IMG/VR virus record: IMGVR_UViG_3300024335_000660
Span: 1 to 30,578 of that record
Length of the DNA: 30,578 nucleotides
Source: a virus
Lineage: Duplodnaviria > Caudoviricetes
Strand: one strand, 5' to 3'
Shown here: positions 11,934 to 21,460 of the stretch, piece by piece
Layout of the letters: the number at the start of each line of letters is the position of its first letter
How positions within the stretch are numbered: the first letter of the stretch is position 1
Notes under the pieces: model-generated
Seen by the model: only the letters and a program-made list of their open reading frames with translations
Databases searched by the model: none
Told to the model about the DNA's origin: nothing
Program-made: the position numbers and the translations under genes

Positions 11934-12356
11934 TTACAGTTCTTTTAAAAGTGCTTTTAGTTTTTTCTTTGACTTGCCTTTTACTTTGGCTTTTGAGATA
12001 TCGTTATCTCCGTCACCTACAACTACAATGGCAATCATGCCCATTGATTTGTGTGGTGAACACTGATATAGATATACACCTGGTACATCAAATGTAATCG
12101 CAACTTCTTTGTTTAGTTTTGATTTCTTTGGTGCTTTCCAACCATCTGGTCCTGCAATGAATTCTACATTGTGACCTTTTGATGTTGGTACCCAAGTAAT
12201 TGTTTCGCCTACTTCAATTGTAGTGATGTCTTGTGAGTAAACCATTTTAGCGCCGTCGTCACGCTTGTTTAGCATTTCGATTGTTACGTCTGCGTGTGCT
12301 GCGCTTACAGTAAATACCGCTGCGAACACTACTAAATAAAAATAAAGTGTTTTCAT
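11934..12356 (-). CDS. Pseudoazurin (type-1 blue copper protein)
   Basis: Signal peptide AHA|D, GHNVE, and C-x-P-H-x-x-M-G-M copper ligands (QCSPHKSMGM). Confidence 0.92.
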   Translation of the reverse strand: MKTLYFYLVVFAAVFTVSAAHADVTIEMLNKRDDGAKMVYSQDITTIEVGETITWVPTSKGHNVEFIAGPDGWKAPKKSKLNKEVAITFDVPGVYLYQCSPHKSMGMIAIVVVGDGDNDISKAKVKGKSKKKLKALLKEL

Positions 12357-12364
12357 GTTATATC

Positions 12365-12499
12365 CTATCTTGTTTTATACATGTTGTGTTTAAACTCTGA
12401 GATTTCATTGGCTTTAGTAAACTCGCCCATTTCTCTAAGTTGTTTGATACTCATACAATAACTTCTGTATTCCATTGCTTTTAAAAATTTCTTAAACAT
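12365..12499 (-). CDS. 44-aa small helical protein
   Basis: Start re-assigned to MFKKFLKAMEYRSY; GGAG RBS; TAATG overlap. Confidence 0.7.
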   Translation of the reverse strand: MFKKFLKAMEYRSYCMSIKQLREMGEFTKANEISEFKHNMYKTR

Positions 12500-12681
12500 T
12501 ATCTGTTCTCCGTCATTAAACGTTTTGCTTCTTCGTGGTATCCTTCTCTCCAAAGTGCTTCTGCAGCTCTTGCTCTGCCTGCTGATTCACCAAGTGCCCA
12601 TGCTCCCATTGCAAATGCTACTAAGCCTTTGCTTACCATTTTACCTAAGTTAGATGTTCTTTTCATTACTAGTGTAGACAT
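12499..12681 (-). CDS. 60-aa small helical protein
   Basis: GESAGRARAAEALWREGYHEEAK; translationally coupled at both ends. Confidence 0.75.
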   Translation of the reverse strand: MSTLVMKRTSNLGKMVSKGLVAFAMGAWALGESAGRARAAEALWREGYHEEAKRLMTENR

Positions 12682-12929
12682 TATACGAAACCTTTCAAGT
12701 TAGCATTTGTTTCAAGATCTGTCATATCTGAAATTTCAGATAATGTTACTTGTTGTGGTTTGTTATATGAATTGTGTGCAATTGTGTAAATTTCTCCACG
12801 ACAAATACCAATATCTTGTAGCTCATGGTTAGTTAGTTTCGAAAGTTCTTTGATAGTAGTACGAACAGCCGTTCTATACTCCATGTTGCGTCTAAAATTA
12901 ATTAGTTTTGTAATAATTGTGTTAATCAT
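12681..12929 (-). CDS. DUF1127-domain small protein
   Basis: RTTIKELSKLTNHELQDIGICRGEI matches the L-x-x-L-[ST]-x-x-x-L-x-DIG-x-x-R signature. Confidence 0.9.
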   Translation of the reverse strand: MINTIITKLINFRRNMEYRTAVRTTIKELSKLTNHELQDIGICRGEIYTIAHNSYNKPQQVTLSEISDMTDLETNANLKGFV

Positions 12930-13111
12930 AATATCATTCCTCTTATATCTTTATCTGATGGTGGCATACCAGTGTCTAGCATGCATTGATAAGCAAACTG
13001 CCAATCATTTCCGTATTCTGTTTTTGCCCAAGTCATCATATTTGATTCTTGTCTTGTTTTTGATTTCGTGAATATATTCACTAAGCCAGTAAATAGCATA
13101 TTAGTCATCAT
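12926..13111 (-). CDS. 61-aa small protein
   Basis: TWAKTEYGNDWQFAY; AAGGAG RBS; ATGA overlap with the DUF1127 gene. Confidence 0.75.
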   Translation of the reverse strand: MMTNMLFTGLVNIFTKSKTRQESNMMTWAKTEYGNDWQFAYQCMLDTGMPPSDKDIRGMIL

Positions 13112-13173
13112 TGTCAGTCTCCTTTTAGGTTAAATGTGTATTTTGAAGCAACCATTGCTTCTTTCTACGCTAA

Positions 13174-13181
13174 TATTTATA
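13174..13181 (-). promoter_or_regulatory. T4-late-type promoter for the DUF1127 operon
   Basis: TATAAATA followed by a leader hairpin, GAAGCAA-TGG-TTGCTTC. Confidence 0.65.
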
Positions 13182-13274
13182 TCATAATAACACGAAAAAC
13201 CAGGGTTTACTACTGCTGTCTGCGTAGACTCGACATGCGTCTAGTGCAACTGTGCATATATGCGCAGCTCATAG

Positions 13275-13399
13275 AAAAACCCTGCTGCATTACTGCAACA
13301 GGGCCTATACTTCTCTTTTGTAGGTGAAGGTTAATACCAAGTCTTACTACATTGTATCCTAGGCCAACTTCATCGCCTGATAGTTAGTTTCCTAACTAT
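13275..13399 (-). ncRNA. Putative 125-nt small RNA
   Basis: Own promoter; ATAGTTAG-GAAA-CTAACTAT hairpin starting at the predicted +1; CCCTGTTGCA-GTAA-TGCAGCAGGG-TTTTT terminator; no credible ORF. Confidence 0.7.
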
Positions 13400-13405
13400 G
13401 TACTT

Positions 13406-13434
13406 AACATAGCATGTCTTAATCTATATGTCAA
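13406..13434 (-). promoter_or_regulatory. sigma70-type promoter of the sRNA
   Basis: TTGACA-N17-TATGTT with TGn. Confidence 0.75.
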
Positions 13435-13442
13435 GTATTTTT

Positions 13443-14573
13443 TTATAATTTAGTTGTGGTATTTGCATAAACTGCATTGAACTGATTATTCACTCTAACA
13501 AATGTTGTACATTTACTTAATTGTTTAAGCTTTAATGCACCTGCATATGTACAAGTACTACGCAAACCGCCCAAGATATTTTGTATTGTATTAGTAACAT
13601 TGCCACGATAAGGAACAAGTACTTCTCGTCCTTCACTTGCACGATAGTCTTTTAGTCCACCAAAGTGTTTTGTATTTGCAGCATCACTGCTCATTCCATA
13701 AAATGCTATAAACTGTTTTTCTTCTACTTTATGTGTCTGCTTATTAAGATGTGATGCAACTTCATAAACAAGCTCATTTATTTGATAGTACTTGGTAATT
13801 ACTTCGCCACCACCTTCATCGTGTCCAGCAAGCATACCGCCTAGCATTACAAAGTCTGCTCCGCCTGCAAATGCTTTAGATACATCGCCAGGACTAGTGC
13901 AACCACCATCAGCAATAATATGTCCGCCAAGTCCATGTGCAGCATCAGCACATTCAATGACGGCTGACAACTGCGGGTAACCAACGCCTGTTTGAATACG
14001 TGTTGTGCATACACTACCTGGTCCAATACCAACTTTAACAATGTCTGCTCCTGCAAGGATTAGTTCTTCTGTCATTTCTCCAGTAACTACATTACCTGCT
14101 ATAATTACCAAATGTGGAAACTGATCACGTACCTTACGTACTCTTGCCGCAAAATGATCACTATAACCATTTGCAATATCCATACAAACAAACTTTAGAT
14201 TTCCACCTACACTAGCTACAACGTCTATTAGCTTATGAAAGTCAGTGTCACTTGTACCAATACTCATAGCAACATTCTCTGATCGTCTACGATCTGGATA
14301 GTCGTTGTTAAAGAATTCTGATAGTACATCTACTGAATATGTTTTTACAAGACAAGTAAAGATGCCCTGCTCTGCAAGTGTGTTAGCCATTTCAATGGTG
14401 CCTACGCCGTCCATGTTAGCAGCCATAATAGGAATACCACTGTAGTCTTTTTTGCTGTTTCTAAATGTAAACTTGCGTTCAAGTCTTACTTGTTTACGTG
14501 AGCTTAATGTACTACGCTTTGGACGAATTAGTACGTCACTGTAGTCTAGTTTTATGTCCTGATCAATTCTCAT
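13443..14573 (-). CDS. guaC: GMP reductase
   Basis: [59 protein letters not shown]; start at MRIDQD with ATGA overlap. Confidence 0.95.
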
Positions 14574-16094: not shown

Positions 16095-16397
16095 TTATTC
16101 TACTTCTTCAACAACTACGTCTAAAGGAAAGCCTGCTTGTCTAGCCTCTGTAATTGTTTCGATACATTTTTGTTCTGCTACTTCGTAACTATAAGTACCT
16201 GCAATACCACGACCATTTTCATGTATATCCATAGTAATAGAAGTTGCATCGTCATGTACTTTATTGAAGGTTGTCACTAGTATTTGGATAACAAACTCCA
16301 TAGGAGTTGCATCGTCATTTAACATGATAACATGATATTTTGGTGGTGTTTTTAAACGTACTGCTTCGCTTACTGCTTCTTTATTTTCTTGTGCCAT
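16095..16397 (-). CDS. clpS: Clp protease adaptor ClpS
   Basis: PPKYHVIMLNDDATPMEFV, IHENGRG, EVAEQK, GFPL. Confidence 0.93.
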   Translation of the reverse strand: MAQENKEAVSEAVRLKTPPKYHVIMLNDDATPMEFVIQILVTTFNKVHDDATSITMDIHENGRGIAGTYSYEVAEQKCIETITEARQAGFPLDVVVEEVE

Positions 16398-16419
16398 TGC
16401 TAGTCCTTAAACTAAATTA

Positions 16420-16650
16420 TTATCGATTGTTTTCTTTTGCAATACGTCTTCGGTGACGTGCTGTTGCTGCTGCTTCAGACGCTAAACGTTTTGCTGTATT
16501 ACTTACAAAATGTTGACGATCTCTTAGCTCTTGTAGGATTCCATCATTCATCATTTTCTTTTTTAATTTTCTCATTGCCTGGTCAACGTTATTGTTTTGT
16601 ACTTTAACGCTTAATCCGCCATCACTTCGAGAATGTTTACTGTTTGCCAT
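16420..16650 (-). CDS. rpsU: Ribosomal protein bS21
   Basis: VKVQNNNVDQAMRKLKKKM...GILQELRDRQHF. Confidence 0.88.
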   Translation of the reverse strand: MANSKHSRSDGGLSVKVQNNNVDQAMRKLKKKMMNDGILQELRDRQHFVSNTAKRLASEAAATARHRRRIAKENNR

Positions 16651-16686
16651 TATTTCACTTTCTTATATGTATATAGCAAGATTCAA

Positions 16687-17892
16687 TTAACCCTTAACCA
16701 ATAAGGGCGGCATATCATCTTTAATAGTTTGGTCAGTAATAACGATCTTTGTAACGCCACGTTCTGACAAATCTGGTAGTTCGTATTGAATATCTATTAA
16801 TGCACGATCGAGTATTTTTCTTAATCCTCTGGCACCTAGCTTCTGTTCAATTGCTATAGTAGCAACTGCATCCAATGCTTTTTTACTAAATTCAATCTCA
16901 ACATTGTCCATTTTAAATAGCTCCTTATATTGGGATACGATATTATTTTCTGGTTCTGTTAAAATTCTTATCAAGTCATCTTTGGATAACTCATGTAATG
17001 TATTTATACTTGGAAGACGTCCTACGAACTCAGGTATTAAACCATACTTAACAAAGTCAGTTGTTTGTAAGTGTTCTTCCCAATTAGTAACTAATGTGGC
17101 TTCGCCATCTTGAAAGCCTATTTTATTTTTACCTATACGCTGTAGCACTGTCTCATCTAGTCCTACAAATGCGCCTGACACTATAAACAATATATCCTTG
17201 GTATCTATATCAATACGCTCAGGATTGTGATTTGGTTGGTTTGGTATACTTACAATAGTACCTTCCATTAACTTTAGTAAACTTTGTTGTACTCCTTCTC
17301 CACTCACGTCACGACTTAAACTTACCATGTCATTACGCTTGGCTTTTTTATCTATCTCATCTACATATATAATACCTATTGAAGCTTTGTCAAGATCATA
17401 ATTAGCATCTTGTACTAACTTGTGTATTAATACTTCAGCATCGTCTCCTGCATAACCGCTTTCTGTTATTACTGTCGCATCTGTAATAACCATAGGTACT
17501 TTTAATTGTTGTGCTAATGTTTGTGCAATTAGAGTTTTGCCACATCCTGTTGGGCCTGTAATTAATATATTACTCTTGCCAATGTTAACTTTTGCTTTGC
17601 TTGTTATTCTTTTATAATGATTATAAACTGCTACACTTATGGATTTCTTTGCATTGTCCTGTCCAATTACATGCTTGTTTAAATAACTATGAAGCTCTTT
17701 AGGAGGGATACGCTTAGTAGCCTTACGGGCTTTGCTAATTTCTTTACCTTCTTCTGTGGTGTCATCATTAAGTATATGCCAACATAAATCAACACATAGA
17801 TTACATATATGTGTTGACTCGTTACCAGCTAAAAGTTTCTTAACTTGATGCTTATCTTTTCCACAAAAGTTACAAGATGGCGAGCTAGTCAT
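16687..17892 (-). CDS. clpX: ClpX AAA+ unfoldase
   Basis: C4 zinc domain (CNFC...CNLC), VIGQ, GPTGCGKT, YVDEIDK, RDVSGEGVQQSLLK, IGF loop, PEFVGRLP, GARGLR. Confidence 0.95.
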   Translation of the reverse strand: MTSSPSCNFCGKDKHQVKKLLAGNESTHICNLCVDLCWHILNDDTTEEGKEISKARKATKRIPPKELHSYLNKHVIGQDNAKKSISVAVYNHYKRITSKAKVNIGKSNILITGPTGCGKTLIAQTLAQQLKVPMVITDATVITESGYAGDDAEVLIHKLVQDANYDLDKASIGIIYVDEIDKKAKRNDMVSLSRDVSGEGVQQSLLKLMEGTIVSIPNQPNHNPERIDIDTKDILFIVSGAFVGLDETVLQRIGKNKIGFQDGEATLVTNWEEHLQTTDFVKYGLIPEFVGRLPSINTLHELSKDDLIRILTEPENNIVSQYKELFKMDNVEIEFSKKALDAVATIAIEQKLGARGLRKILDRALIDIQYELPDLSERGVTKIVITDQTIKDDMPPLLVKG

Positions 17893-18337
17893 CTAGATAT
17901 CCAAATCCAGGTGCTGTTTGTATTTTAAGGTATGCATCTAATTCGTTTATATCAGACAGCATAACATATTTACTTGATGCGTTTATTAATTTGATCGCTT
18001 CACGTCTCTTTTTCTTTGGGCTGTAGAAAATTACCTGATGTCCTTCATCAACAGTTTTTAATAATGCTGCCATGATATCTTCATACGCACATGTGTCTAT
18101 ATCCAGTATCATAAACTCACATGATCTACTAACATGCCACAGCCATGGCAATGATACTGATGTGGTTTTACTGCCTTGTACATAAAACACAATACTGTTC
18201 ATGATATATTTTTCTACAAGTAACTTAATGCCAGAAGTTAACTTTGCATCAGTACTTGATATTACTACGCTAACACCATTGTCAGAAAGAAAGAGGTCTG
18301 GTGATGTTACTGTGTAACTGCTATTATCTGGTTTCAT
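17885..18337 (-). CDS. Hypothetical protein, coupled to clpX
   Basis: 150-aa ORF overlapping the clpX start. Confidence 0.7.
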   Translation of the reverse strand: MKPDNSSYTVTSPDLFLSDNGVSVVISSTDAKLTSGIKLLVEKYIMNSIVFYVQGSKTTSVSLPWLWHVSRSCEFMILDIDTCAYEDIMAALLKTVDEGHQVIFYSPKKKRREAIKLINASSKYVMLSDINELDAYLKIQTAPGFGYLDD

Positions 18338-18352
18338 GTAGTTCTATTTCTA

Positions 18353-19765
18353 TTAGTTATTATCTATTAAGTCTTTTATTGTAGCGTATTCAGGATTACC
18401 AGGTTCATATGTTACACCTTTGTAAACTATCTTATCAGTATACAGGTTTTCTTGTACTACGTCAACTATTACTGGCTGTTTTTCTTTAACAATTTTCTTC
18501 TTAATACTATTTACCTTTTTTTTTGGTTGTACTTTTTCTGGCTCTGGTTCAGAAACTTTTACAACTGGCTTGTGTTCTATAACTGGTTCCTGTTTACGTT
18601 TGCGAGTCTTTTGGTTTTGCTCAACTAAACTAATACCTGATATAACTAATGCAACTGCAAGTGGATCAAAAACAAATACAAGTATCAGTATAACTGCCCT
18701 AACTGCTTGCTCGAGTGATGATGTTCCTGCATCAGTACCATAAACCATTTCAGCAATATACTTAACTGGTCCTACTTCTGCTTCTAGTACACGTGCTTGT
18801 GATTCAATCTCATACTTCTTTTCCATTAAAGTACCTATAGTATTGTTAGCTTTTTTAATTTTAATACTCTGTTCGTCAACATCAGCTTCAACTGTGTCTG
18901 CATTTCCTCTGCCAAGCTGACTACGTAGGCGAGTAACTAGTTGATTAGAATCTGCAATCTCTCTTTCTGCGATTGCACGAACACGAGCAATTTCTGTAGA
19001 GGCTTTATCACGTAGCTGTTGTATTTGACTTAATGCTACTTGCTTCTTATTCTCTAAGTTTACTTTATAATCCTCTACTGCTTGTGCTGTTTTGCTTCCC
19101 CAAGCCCCATCTGGTTTAGCTTTTACAAAAGCTTGTAATGTCCTAACTTTGTCTCTATCACGTGTATCAATTGCTGTAAGTTCACTTAGTTTAACTAAGT
19201 CACTTGATGATATATCAAACTCTTGTTGCCAAGGAACAATACTTGCTAATAGTGATTCTTTTAAATCAGTTACAGTTAGTTCAATACGATTATTAGCTGA
19301 TGTAATACGTTGCTGTTCTGCTTCAATTTTAGTCTGTAGAGTGTCATCTACTACTGTGCTTGCATTGTTTAAATTTTGTATTGTAATTTCTGCACGTGAT
19401 ATAATATCCTCGTTGCGAGAGATTTCTGTTTGCAGACGTTCTAACTGTGCAACACCTTCAGTAGCAACTGCTGTTTGCTCAATATGCGCTTTACTTAAGA
19501 AGCCAAAAATACCCATACTTGTGATGAACATTAGTAGCATTGTAGCGAATACCAAATATGATTTAATTAAAAATCCTGCTCTAGTCCAATTTAAATGAAG
19601 CCATACCGCTGTAGTTAATTTACCAACTTCTAGAGCTGCTCCCATGATAATAACTGGTACTACTGCGCTGGCAAAAATTGCAACTAATCCTACTATACTA
19701 TAATATGCGGCAACTACACTAATACATAATGCTACAAATACTGTCCAATATCCAAATAATCTCAT
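18353..19765 (-). CDS. Membrane protein with a long coiled coil and an embedded peptidoglycan-binding-like motif
   Basis: Three N-terminal TMs (AAYYSIVGL, LEVGK, TSMGIFGFLSKAH), heptad region, VRTLQ...DGAWGSKTAQAV, C-terminal TM (FVFDPLAV). Confidence 0.75.
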   Translation of the reverse strand: MRLFGYWTVFVALCISVVAAYYSIVGLVAIFASAVVPVIIMGAALEVGKLTTAVWLHLNWTRAGFLIKSYLVFATMLLMFITSMGIFGFLSKAHIEQTAVATEGVAQLERLQTEISRNEDIISRAEITIQNLNNASTVVDDTLQTKIEAEQQRITSANNRIELTVTDLKESLLASIVPWQQEFDISSSDLVKLSELTAIDTRDRDKVRTLQAFVKAKPDGAWGSKTAQAVEDYKVNLENKKQVALSQIQQLRDKASTEIARVRAIAEREIADSNQLVTRLRSQLGRGNADTVEADVDEQSIKIKKANNTIGTLMEKKYEIESQARVLEAEVGPVKYIAEMVYGTDAGTSSLEQAVRAVILILVFVFDPLAVALVISGISLVEQNQKTRKRKQEPVIEHKPVVKVSEPEPEKVQPKKKVNSIKKKIVKEKQPVIVDVVQENLYTDKIVYKGVTYEPGNPEYATIKDLIDNN

Positions 19766-19766
19766 T

Positions 19767-20123
19767 TTATTTTGCTCCGTTAAAATACTCCACTGCATAT
19801 CCTTCTGCTACCATTAAATCATTTAAATTAACTTGGTCGCCAAATTTGTCAGTTACAAGTATTATACCCATTATACGTCCATATTTACCTCGTTTATTGA
19901 GTACACTTTTAATTACAAAAGTTTTGTTAAGTAATTCCATTAATCTCGCCTTTGCTTCTAATCCACGTTCTTTTGTCTCTAGATCAGATGACTTGCTATC
20001 AGGAGTAGCTATGCCATATAGCTTAACTCGCTGTGATATAGATATGTCGAATCCTAAGTCGATAGAAACATCAAGTGTGTCGCCATCTATAATTCTTACT
20101 AGGGTTGCTTTATATGTATACAT
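19767..20123 (-). CDS. Thermonuclease (SNase)-fold protein with altered catalytic motif
   Basis: IIDGDTLDVSIDLGF, VKLYGIATPDS (family pattern VRLxGIDTPE), KYGR. Confidence 0.8.
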   Translation of the reverse strand: MYTYKATLVRIIDGDTLDVSIDLGFDISISQRVKLYGIATPDSKSSDLETKERGLEAKARLMELLNKTFVIKSVLNKRGKYGRIMGIILVTDKFGDQVNLNDLMVAEGYAVEYFNGAK

Positions 20124-20163
20124 TTATTTTATCCTTAGTTTACAGATTAATAACCCTGCTGTA

Positions 20164-20170
20164 TATTTAT
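20164..20170 (-). promoter_or_regulatory. T4-late-type promoter
   Basis: ATAAATA about 40 nt upstream of the SNase-fold gene. Confidence 0.6.
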
Positions 20171-20187
20171 TATGCAAATACTGTTAC

Positions 20188-20763
20188 TTAACGTATACTA
20201 TTATTGCTATGTGACCAATGCTTTGCTTGTTTACTTGATGGTGGGGTATTTAAAAAATCATACACTGAATTAGCAACTGCTTCTAGTTTATATTTTCTAC
20301 CAGCATCTTGTGTATTCTCACTGGTGTCTATAACATGAAAATTGTCTTGATTAAATATTTCTTTAAATTTTATAAGATTGTCTTGTGCCTGGTTCCACTC
20401 TACAGTAACTAATTCTGCAGGAGTTCTTTTATTGCCTTCTTGATTTCGCTTGTGAGTAACTTCAAGATTAGCTGTAACAAATAACATAATAGTATCATAT
20501 CCTAGCTTCTCTACCATGTCTAATTGAGCTTGAACTTTTTCTACATCTCTTCCATTACTAGGCAAAAGTAGTCCTACTCGATTATATGCAAAGCTTGAGT
20601 CAATTTCATCACAGTTAACTGGTCTAAGACTAGTCCCATTCAACATAGTATTAGCCACAAATGCTTTTCCAGAACAAGGGCCGCCCACAAGGAAAACTGC
20701 CTTGAACTTGTGCGGATCATTAAAATCTGTCTGTGGTTTTACTAATATATCAAGTATCTTCAT
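20188..20763 (-). CDS. P-loop kinase-like protein (zeta-toxin/AAA_33-like), degenerate
   Basis: KAVFLVGGPCSGKAF, LGYDTIMLFV, RN...R lid motif. Confidence 0.65.
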   Translation of the reverse strand: MKILDILVKPQTDFNDPHKFKAVFLVGGPCSGKAFVANTMLNGTSLRPVNCDEIDSSFAYNRVGLLLPSNGRDVEKVQAQLDMVEKLGYDTIMLFVTANLEVTHKRNQEGNKRTPAELVTVEWNQAQDNLIKFKEIFNQDNFHVIDTSENTQDAGRKYKLEAVANSVYDFLNTPPSSKQAKHWSHSNNSIR

Positions 20764-20768
20764 AGTTA

Positions 20769-20776
20769 TATTTATA
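20769..20776 (-). promoter_or_regulatory. T4-late-type promoter
   Basis: TATAAATA-TAACT-ATG. Confidence 0.7.
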
Positions 20777-20794
20777 ACTTGTCAACAAGAATTA

Positions 20795-20817
20795 TGCTGG
20801 GTAGTTAATACCCAGCA
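20795..20817 (-). terminator. Terminator-like hairpin after clpP
   Basis: TGCTGGGTA-N5-TACCCAGCA perfect 9-bp stem; weak U-tail. Confidence 0.7.
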
Positions 20818-20845
20818 CTACATTTAGTTTAACCTACTTGATCTA

Positions 20846-21460
20846 TTATTTTTTTGTGATTACTTTGTCAGCTAATCCAAATTCAACTGCTTCTTGTGCT
20901 GAAAGGAATGTGTCAAACTTCATTGTTTCAAAGAACGTATCATATGTTTTGCCTGCTGTATTATGATCTACATACAACTGCGTTAGGCGTTCATTAATTT
21001 TTTTAGATTCTTCCATTGAACGAATAGTATCTTCAAATTGTAGTTCTTGTACATGTACACTTCCACTTGTACCTGGTGTGCCACTACTTACTCTGTGGAT
21101 CATTGTGCGTGAGTTAGGTAATACAAATCGCTTGCCTGGTTCACCTGCTTGTGCTAGGAATGAACCCATACTACATGCTTGTCCCATAACAATAGTTGAT
21201 ACTGGTGCATTAATAAACTGCATAGTATCGTAAATTGATAGTCCTGCTGTTACGCTTCCGCCTGGAGAATTGATATAAAAATTAATATCTTCATCTGGGT
21301 TTTGTGATTCTAAAAATAGCATTTGTGCTACTACTAGGTTTGCACTATTATCATTAACATCTGTATTGAGCATAACGATACGATCTTTTAGTAAGCGGCT
21401 GAAAATATCGTAAGAACGTTCGCCGCGACCTGTTTGTTCTACTACCATTGGGACTAGCAT
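20846..21460 (-). CDS. clpP: ClpP peptidase
   Basis: [38 protein letters not shown] (Ser), MIH (His), FDTF (Asp), EAVEFGLAD. Confidence 0.96.

Follow-up and report, generated by a model that had tools for sequence, protein, structure and literature searches.

Base-pairing small RNAs (sRNAs) encoded by phages exist: the report on lambda LPR1 (PreS) (bioRxiv 10.1101/2024.10.31.621285) describes a short non-coding phage unit that is experimentally shown and conserved, with proposed mRNA pairing. Lytic phages that infect marine bacteria have so far yielded few regulatory RNAs, as PMC9964418 notes for cyanophages. The manA RNA (RF01745, PMC2864571) is an RNA of marine T4-like phages, about 190–200 nt long with several stems, and the PeSL cassettes of T4-like phages (PMC4122927) carry a stem-loop upstream of a sigma-70-like early promoter at insertion/deletion sites, with a Shine-Dalgarno (SD) sequence and a start codon after it. 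The Cuckoo/CcsR/alpha-r14 RNAs of the CIN1 loci lie by a DUF1127 gene and have a pyrimidine-rich, anti-SD-like segment, with CCUCCUCCC in two hairpin loops (PMC8034643).

We analysed a candidate unit of this general size in a virus record of 30.6 kb (the window, meaning the whole stretch of DNA), which is about 9% complete and encodes phoH, clpS/X/P, ribosomal protein S21, guaC and two tRNAs; clpS, clpX, clpP, the S21 gene and phoH lie at 16095–21460 and 70–744. Records of related viruses are as long as 343 kb and have terminal repeats, so we take the phage to be a jumbo phage. The RNA runs that contain it are marine, and its DUF1127 gene, pseudoazurin-like gene and LysR-type box suggest an alphaproteobacterial host. 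PMC9123017 and PMC12619734 gave no help in placing the phage.

Anatomy and insertion site of the unit

The unit lies on the minus strand and runs for 125 nt from a predicted +1 at 13399 to the terminator end at 13275; with its promoter the block spans 13434–13275 (Table 1). Inspection of the sequence bore out the elements that the earlier note had described: the TTGACA-N17-TATGTT promoter, which matches 10 of 12 consensus positions and has TG upstream of TATGTT, the perfect 8-bp GAAA-capped hairpin that starts at +1, and the 10-bp GTAA-capped terminator with U5, in which one pair is G-U. This terminator was missed by a simple terminator scan. Because the scan lists no other terminator between the guaC stop and the one in the unit, the latter probably ends the guaC message too, so that the label "stand-alone" fits the unit's own promoter and terminator but is weakened by a terminator that is probably shared. 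We also agree that there is no credible ORF, as none with a start codon and more than 11 codons lies wholly inside the unit; an AGGA stands four bases 5' of an AUG, and two stops immediately follow that AUG. Judged by sequence only, the unit has the marks of an sRNA: its own promoter, an intrinsic terminator, a length within 50–300 nt and no ORF.

Table 1. Features of the unit and its neighbourhood in the window (positions are window coordinates)
Feature	Position	Strand	Details
guaC, GMP reductase (upstream gene)	13443..14573	-	ATG 14573, stop ends 13443; NCBIfam NF003470 543 bits vs cutoff 397; Pfam IMPDH
Predicted host sigma-70-type (early) promoter	13406..13442	-	A-tract, TTGACA 13434-13429, 17 nt, TG-n-TATGTT 13411-13406
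5' hairpin, flush with predicted +1	13380..13399	-	8 Watson-Crick pairs, GAAA loop; pair probabilities 0.63-1.0
Weakly structured middle	13304..13379	-	Folding z 0.26; pyrimidine-rich AACCUUCACCU 13332-13322; A-rich stretch 13319-13309
Predicted intrinsic terminator	13275..13303	-	10-bp stem (one G-U) 13303-13280, GUAA loop, U5 13279-13275
Predicted LysR-type operator region	13236..13268	-	T-N11-A box 13248-13236
Operon's own promoter element TATAAATA	13174..13181	-	Predicted start near 13167
Downstream operon	11934..13111	-	61-aa ORF; DUF1127 protein 12929-12681; 60-aa and 44-aa ORFs; pseudoazurin-like protein 12356-11934

The whole unit folds with a z of -3.96, matched by none of 200 shuffles. 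The 5' hairpin and the terminator were each better than all 300 shuffles, and for the middle (nt 21–98) 172 of 300 shuffles were as good; only the two end hairpins account for the fold significance of the unit. G+C content is 42% in the middle as against 33% in the window's non-coding DNA, and in the RNA fold the A-rich stretch of the middle is mostly unpaired and its pyrimidine stretch partly paired.

For the middle, the earlier note had proposed a long interrupted helix and an anti-SD seed. Both arm pairs (GGCCT/AGGCC and TGTAG/CTACA) and the pyrimidine segment are present, and the AGGCC arm does overlap the terminator base, by 2 bp. The helix itself did not hold up: in the full RNA the pairing probability was 0.0 for GGCCU/AGGCC and 0.4–0.5 for UGUAG/CUACA, no better than chance, and a structure with the outer helix reaches -30.7 kcal/mol vs -39.7 for the best fold, a cost of 9 kcal/mol. 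In folds of the growing transcript, the best structure contains a 6-bp GGCCUA/UAGGCC helix at lengths of 98–118 nt; at 120 nt this helix has been displaced. The seed fared no better, since the pyrimidine segment forms a duplex of -8.4 with AGGAGGUGA vs -15.2 for the presumed 16S tail, about half the energy and no better than chance. It has UCACCU in common with what we take to be the 16S tail.

On the promoter alone the locus is at chance level, with 19 promoter-scan matches found and 19.0 expected in 5 kb. Perfect 8-bp hairpins with a 4-nt loop occur 151 times per 2,712,953 positions of related phage DNA, and in 9 of them, the unit's included, the loop is GNRA. Of 648 promoter-like sites in related phage contigs (140 stretches totalling 2.72 Mb; the local scans left out the jumbo-phage genome G095 and part of G066), 10 have a hairpin of at least 7 bp near +1, and among the 648 only the window's unit joins a +1 hairpin, a separate terminator and the lack of an ORF of 40 codons. 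Promoter–terminator units without a long ORF numbered 35, the remainder including tRNA genes, chance matches and a leader-peptide family. The same promoter type precedes other genes of this phage and of its relatives, two of which (L307 and L320) have a similar +1 context. Three observations support the claim that this is a short non-coding transcription unit of its own: the anatomy, the rarity of the combination among the 648 sites, and the occurrence of the whole as a single block that is absent in relatives. We regard the promoter–hairpin–terminator unit as probably transcribed.

Comparison of guaC-adjacent relatives revealed an empty site. In five near-identical contigs (L222–L225, L230), no more than 2 nt separate the guaC stop from the operator region that in the window comes after the unit. 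The TAAATA element lies 62–167 nt past the guaC stop in 11 of 13 distinct loci vs 263 nt in the window, and the interval in L400 is 1.4 kb. None of the 12 other guaC-adjacent relatives has a sigma-70 promoter pattern in the guaC–operon interval; among the 13 distinct loci the window alone has one. Most relatives do without a terminator at the unit's position, L399 has one there, and L075 has at the same position a 545-codon gene with its own terminator ahead of the same operator. The unit is thus a lineage-specific insertion between guaC and the DUF1127/pseudoazurin operon, and, as L075 has a gene with a terminator at the same place, the site takes complete inserted units that have a terminator at their end.

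Short units of other kinds were noticed in the related phages. A promoter, a 19–33-codon ORF with a Trp codon and a terminator precede tRNA clusters in which tRNA-Trp comes first in nine of ten and third in one (L289 +18308; L334 +6383, L002 5644–5820; L337 -18688; L341 -15670; L347 +10632; L350 +12908; L352 -15671; L310 -16795; L331 +8965; L267 near -8950). The peptide was read by script in nine of the ten, and these units look like ribosome-sensing attenuation of phage tRNA genes. RNAs resembling manA occur in 10 of 100 related virus records (L435–L437, L444–L450), 7 of them above the Rfam cutoff, and the inspected ones have their own sigma-70-type promoter. Promoter- or manA-linked hairpins with long C/U-rich loops, a terminator and no evident ORF (L444–L449 at about 1740–1800, L460 +3829) are further sRNA candidates.

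Homolog searches, the downstream operon and RNA data

One contig is 99.98% identical over the whole window and is therefore not independent; no distinct homolog of the unit came up. In the Rfam search the window gave only two tRNAs at gathering scores, and the six matches in 13050–13500 (E 0.46–8.3) were all below cutoff. Exact patterns from the unit matched 1, 1 and 24 stretches of viral contigs, the near-identical contig being the only real match; the remaining 23 stretches, judged by reading, were without the promoter–hairpin layout. A metagenome pattern matched at least 120 loci from 19 of 64 collection parts, among which those listed had no alignment past the seed (best E 0.097), and a prokaryote genome pattern gave 2 matches with unrelated flanks. 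BLAST over 50, 5 and 50 virus records found one promoter-only match (E 0.001) and no homolog, nhmmer of the unit over 2.7 Mb had a best E of 3.5, and six-frame tblastn of the unit against 3.5 Mb of viral loci gave no protein match (best E 0.39). Nothing beyond the near-identical contig was found in 80 guaC loci (scan of 20 of 64 parts) and 80 operon loci; INPHARED phages gave short matches only and plasmids none. These searches rest on exact-match patterns and the virus records are nearly all fragments, so that absence is not proven. Among the papers listed in literature searches, none dealt with the unit's RNA or with the DUF1127/pseudoazurin operon of this phage.

A number of candidate identities were rejected. 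A two-piece BLAST match in G084 turned out to fall within a long, repetitive ORF, on its reverse strand; a ribozyme or group I intron core is unfit in its element order (by eye) and has no Rfam match; and the helicase-like word DEVGLG in one frame has flanks that do not match. A degenerate Trp-leader attenuator was dropped, a profile of 7 such attenuators matching the terminator alone (E 0.15), as was a displaced operon leader, for which a profile of 33 leader modules gave no match in the unit.

The DUF1127 gene of the downstream operon (PF06568) is one ORF away from the unit, and the pseudoazurin-like protein scores 100.4 bits with TIGR02375, under the 109.85 cutoff. TAAATA is found upstream in 51 of 53 operon leaders. 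Among 53 distinct regions upstream of the operon, 32 have a TGC-N7-GCA-type box, whose position relative to TAAATA ranges from -47 to -96 and is most commonly -69. The operator boxes are spaced about 10 nt apart and conserved in position before the TAAATA phage promoter. The region upstream of the operon suggests control by a host regulator of the VtlR/LsrB kind. VtlR activates three DUF1127 genes in Brucella (PMC12595884), and the VtlR motif quoted there also contains TGCA-N4-TGCA. The DNA of the unit's terminator stem contains such a TGCA-N4-TGCA palindrome (13297–13286), with a second at 13256–13245, 41 nt apart, and the window has just these two. The terminator as a conserved LysR site was rejected, as the N4 palindrome stands at -118 in just 1 of 53 upstream regions.

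The RNA data consisted of assembled contigs from 8 runs in 8 studies (of 24 runs listed), with no DNA run as control. The operon (11934–13165) is present as long exact contigs in seawater RNA runs, which also contain numerous variant copies that belong to related organisms. The operon's contigs end, in all 8 runs, at 13140–13165 with no loose ends, just past the predicted start near 13167; as contigs cannot map starts, this is a weak hint of the operon's own start. Two contigs touch the unit, 13313–13474 (X1) and 13344–13508 (X2), both exact and both extending upstream past +1 into guaC; they fit guaC read-through or DNA and do not establish a separate RNA. The other 6 of 8 runs were without a contig over the unit, and 0 of 8 had one over 13166–13312; libraries of this type often lose small RNAs, and the gap proves nothing.

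Of 53 distinct phage loci, 50 have a conserved modular RNA leader ahead of the DUF1127 operon (L002 2930–2980, L075 5633–5683, L356–L434 near 1420–1480); it is missing in the window at 13165–13112. The leader starts with at least one and up to several short hairpins, which vary in their stems and mostly have an AAAGA-like loop, and closes with a hairpin that has a CCUC-type loop before the SD. It has no Rfam match and looks like an undescribed cis-regulatory motif, with covariation seen by eye, not counted. The window's phage has lost it. This leader is a better-supported lead than the unit.

Readings of the unit

We read the unit, with a probability of about 0.45 and therefore tentatively, as an orphan, early, end-stabilised phage sRNA whose terminator would also end guaC and which most likely would act in trans by base pairing. 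Its anatomy, its insertion and the separate promoter signals of the operon are found in the DNA; transcription, stability and action in trans are what this reading adds. Host RNA polymerase would start at 13399 early in infection and make a 125-nt non-coding RNA. The terminator would supply a 3' stem and a U tail, features typical of Hfq-type sRNAs, and would at the same time end the guaC message and keep read-through from reaching the DUF1127/pseudoazurin operon, which has separate promoter signals. Pairing with mRNAs would fall to a region in the loose middle. The flush 5' hairpin may block 5'-end-dependent decay, as we infer from the known behaviour of RppH/RNase E, against which 5' secondary structure stabilises transcripts (PMC3997798). 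A search for a pairing target among 80 ribosome-binding regions in a 48.7-kb piece of the same phage gave a best value of -16.9 kcal/mol, matched by 66 of 100 shuffles. This counts against the reading, as do the lack of a distinct homolog in the searches above, which leaves it without support from conservation, and a middle that folds no better than shuffles. It is quite improbable that the unit is, more specifically, a newly gained, doubly capped early sRNA whose exposed UCACCU/CCUUC would mask the ribosome-binding sites of host mRNAs in the one lineage of these lytic phages without the operon's leader; if true, phages would have their own equivalent of the alphaproteobacterial anti-SD sRNAs.

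The unit might instead be the remnant of a protein-coding insert, in which the promoter, leader hairpin and terminator were kept and the gene was deleted or decayed, a short idle RNA perhaps persisting. We consider this doubtful, though deserving of serious weight. The site takes inserted transcription units, as seen from the gene with terminator in L075 and the terminator in L399; hairpins near +1 also precede ordinary genes (L261 and L274); the loss of the operon's conserved leader means that deletions occurred here; and no homolog was found. The AGGA before an AUG and two stops points the same way, but a spacing of four bases is short for a ribosome site. No frame gave a protein match in tblastn, and promoter, hairpin and terminator are all intact, which argues against this reading, as does the difference from PeSL, whose stem-loop is upstream of the promoter (PMC4122927). 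That the terminator alone matters, ending the guaC transcript and insulating the LysR-regulated operon promoter, with the promoter and first hairpin incidental and the stretch being guaC 3' UTR, strikes us as unlikely. RNA contigs from 2 studies run from the end of guaC into the unit, the 5-kb scan finds promoter-like matches no more often than expected by chance, and L075 and L399 have a terminator at the same place, all in keeping with such a role; yet a perfect 8-bp GNRA hairpin, of a kind found 9 times in 2.7 million positions, stands exactly 7 nt past the -10 box, the promoter has an A-tract and a +1 context like the phage's other promoters, and most relatives need no terminator here.

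The earlier note had also offered an attenuator controlling read-through into the DUF1127/pseudoazurin operon. In such an attenuator or riboswitch, the GGCCUA/UAGGCC helix, which is in the best fold of 98–118-nt transcripts, would weaken the terminator and early transcription would reach the operon; leader-peptide attenuator-like units of similar size do exist in related phages. We hold this to be very unlikely, because the operon has its own conserved operator and TAAATA promoter, its RNA contigs begin at 13140–13165 in 8 of 8 runs (a weak hint), the 2-bp overlap leaves 8 terminator pairs, and neither a leader peptide nor an aptamer was recognised. Moreover, relatives keep the operon without the unit, the competing helix is unpopulated (probability 0.0, at a cost of 9 kcal/mol), and the profile of 7 leader-peptide attenuators finds the terminator only; Rfam matches no riboswitch, which leaves room for an undescribed aptamer. 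Least credence of all goes to a shortened derivative of a structured phage RNA, either manA or the operon's modular leader, serving as a protein-binding RNA or decoy. It would draw on the manA-like RNAs, which in 10 of 100 related virus records lie behind a promoter of the same type, on short words in common with the middle (by eye) and on the hairpin module that is conserved in 50 of 53 operon leaders and missing in this phage. However, Rfam manA is unmatched even at E 10, profiles built on 8 manA-like sequences have no coding-strand match (a 7-bit hit on the opposite strand is among 121 noise hits), and the profile of 33 leader modules misses the unit.

If it is a working sRNA, the unit would illustrate how a phage can acquire a complete RNA gene at a variable site, and would offer a small testable handle on RNA-level control of the host. 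As an orphan with a predicted transcript only, it does not yet open a question.

Comparison with described systems

The unit resembles the PeSL cassettes in having a sigma-70-like early promoter and a stem-loop at an insertion/deletion site. In PeSL (PMC4122927) the stem-loop precedes the promoter, and downstream of the promoter come an SD and a start codon, whereas the unit has both hairpins downstream and no gene after; the position of the stem-loop and the absent SD and start codon contradict a PeSL identity. The manA RNA of marine T4-like phages follows the same promoter type in relatives, but it is larger, with several stems (PMC2864571), and manA identity was rejected, the covariance model and custom profiles being unmatched by the unit. 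Like the Cuckoo/CcsR/alpha-r14 RNAs, the unit is a small RNA candidate by a DUF1127 gene with a pyrimidine-rich, anti-SD-like segment. Unlike them (PMC8034643), it has a terminator and a second promoter between itself and the DUF1127 operon, and it is without CCUCCUCCC, its loops being GAAA and GUAA, and without an Rfam match; Cuckoo/CcsR identity was rejected on the lack of CCUCCUCCC loops. Lambda LPR1 is experimentally shown and conserved (bioRxiv 10.1101/2024.10.31.621285), whereas the unit is an orphan known from sequence. As a short non-coding phage unit with proposed mRNA pairing, lambda LPR1 is, by analogy, the nearest working precedent for the putative sRNA described here.
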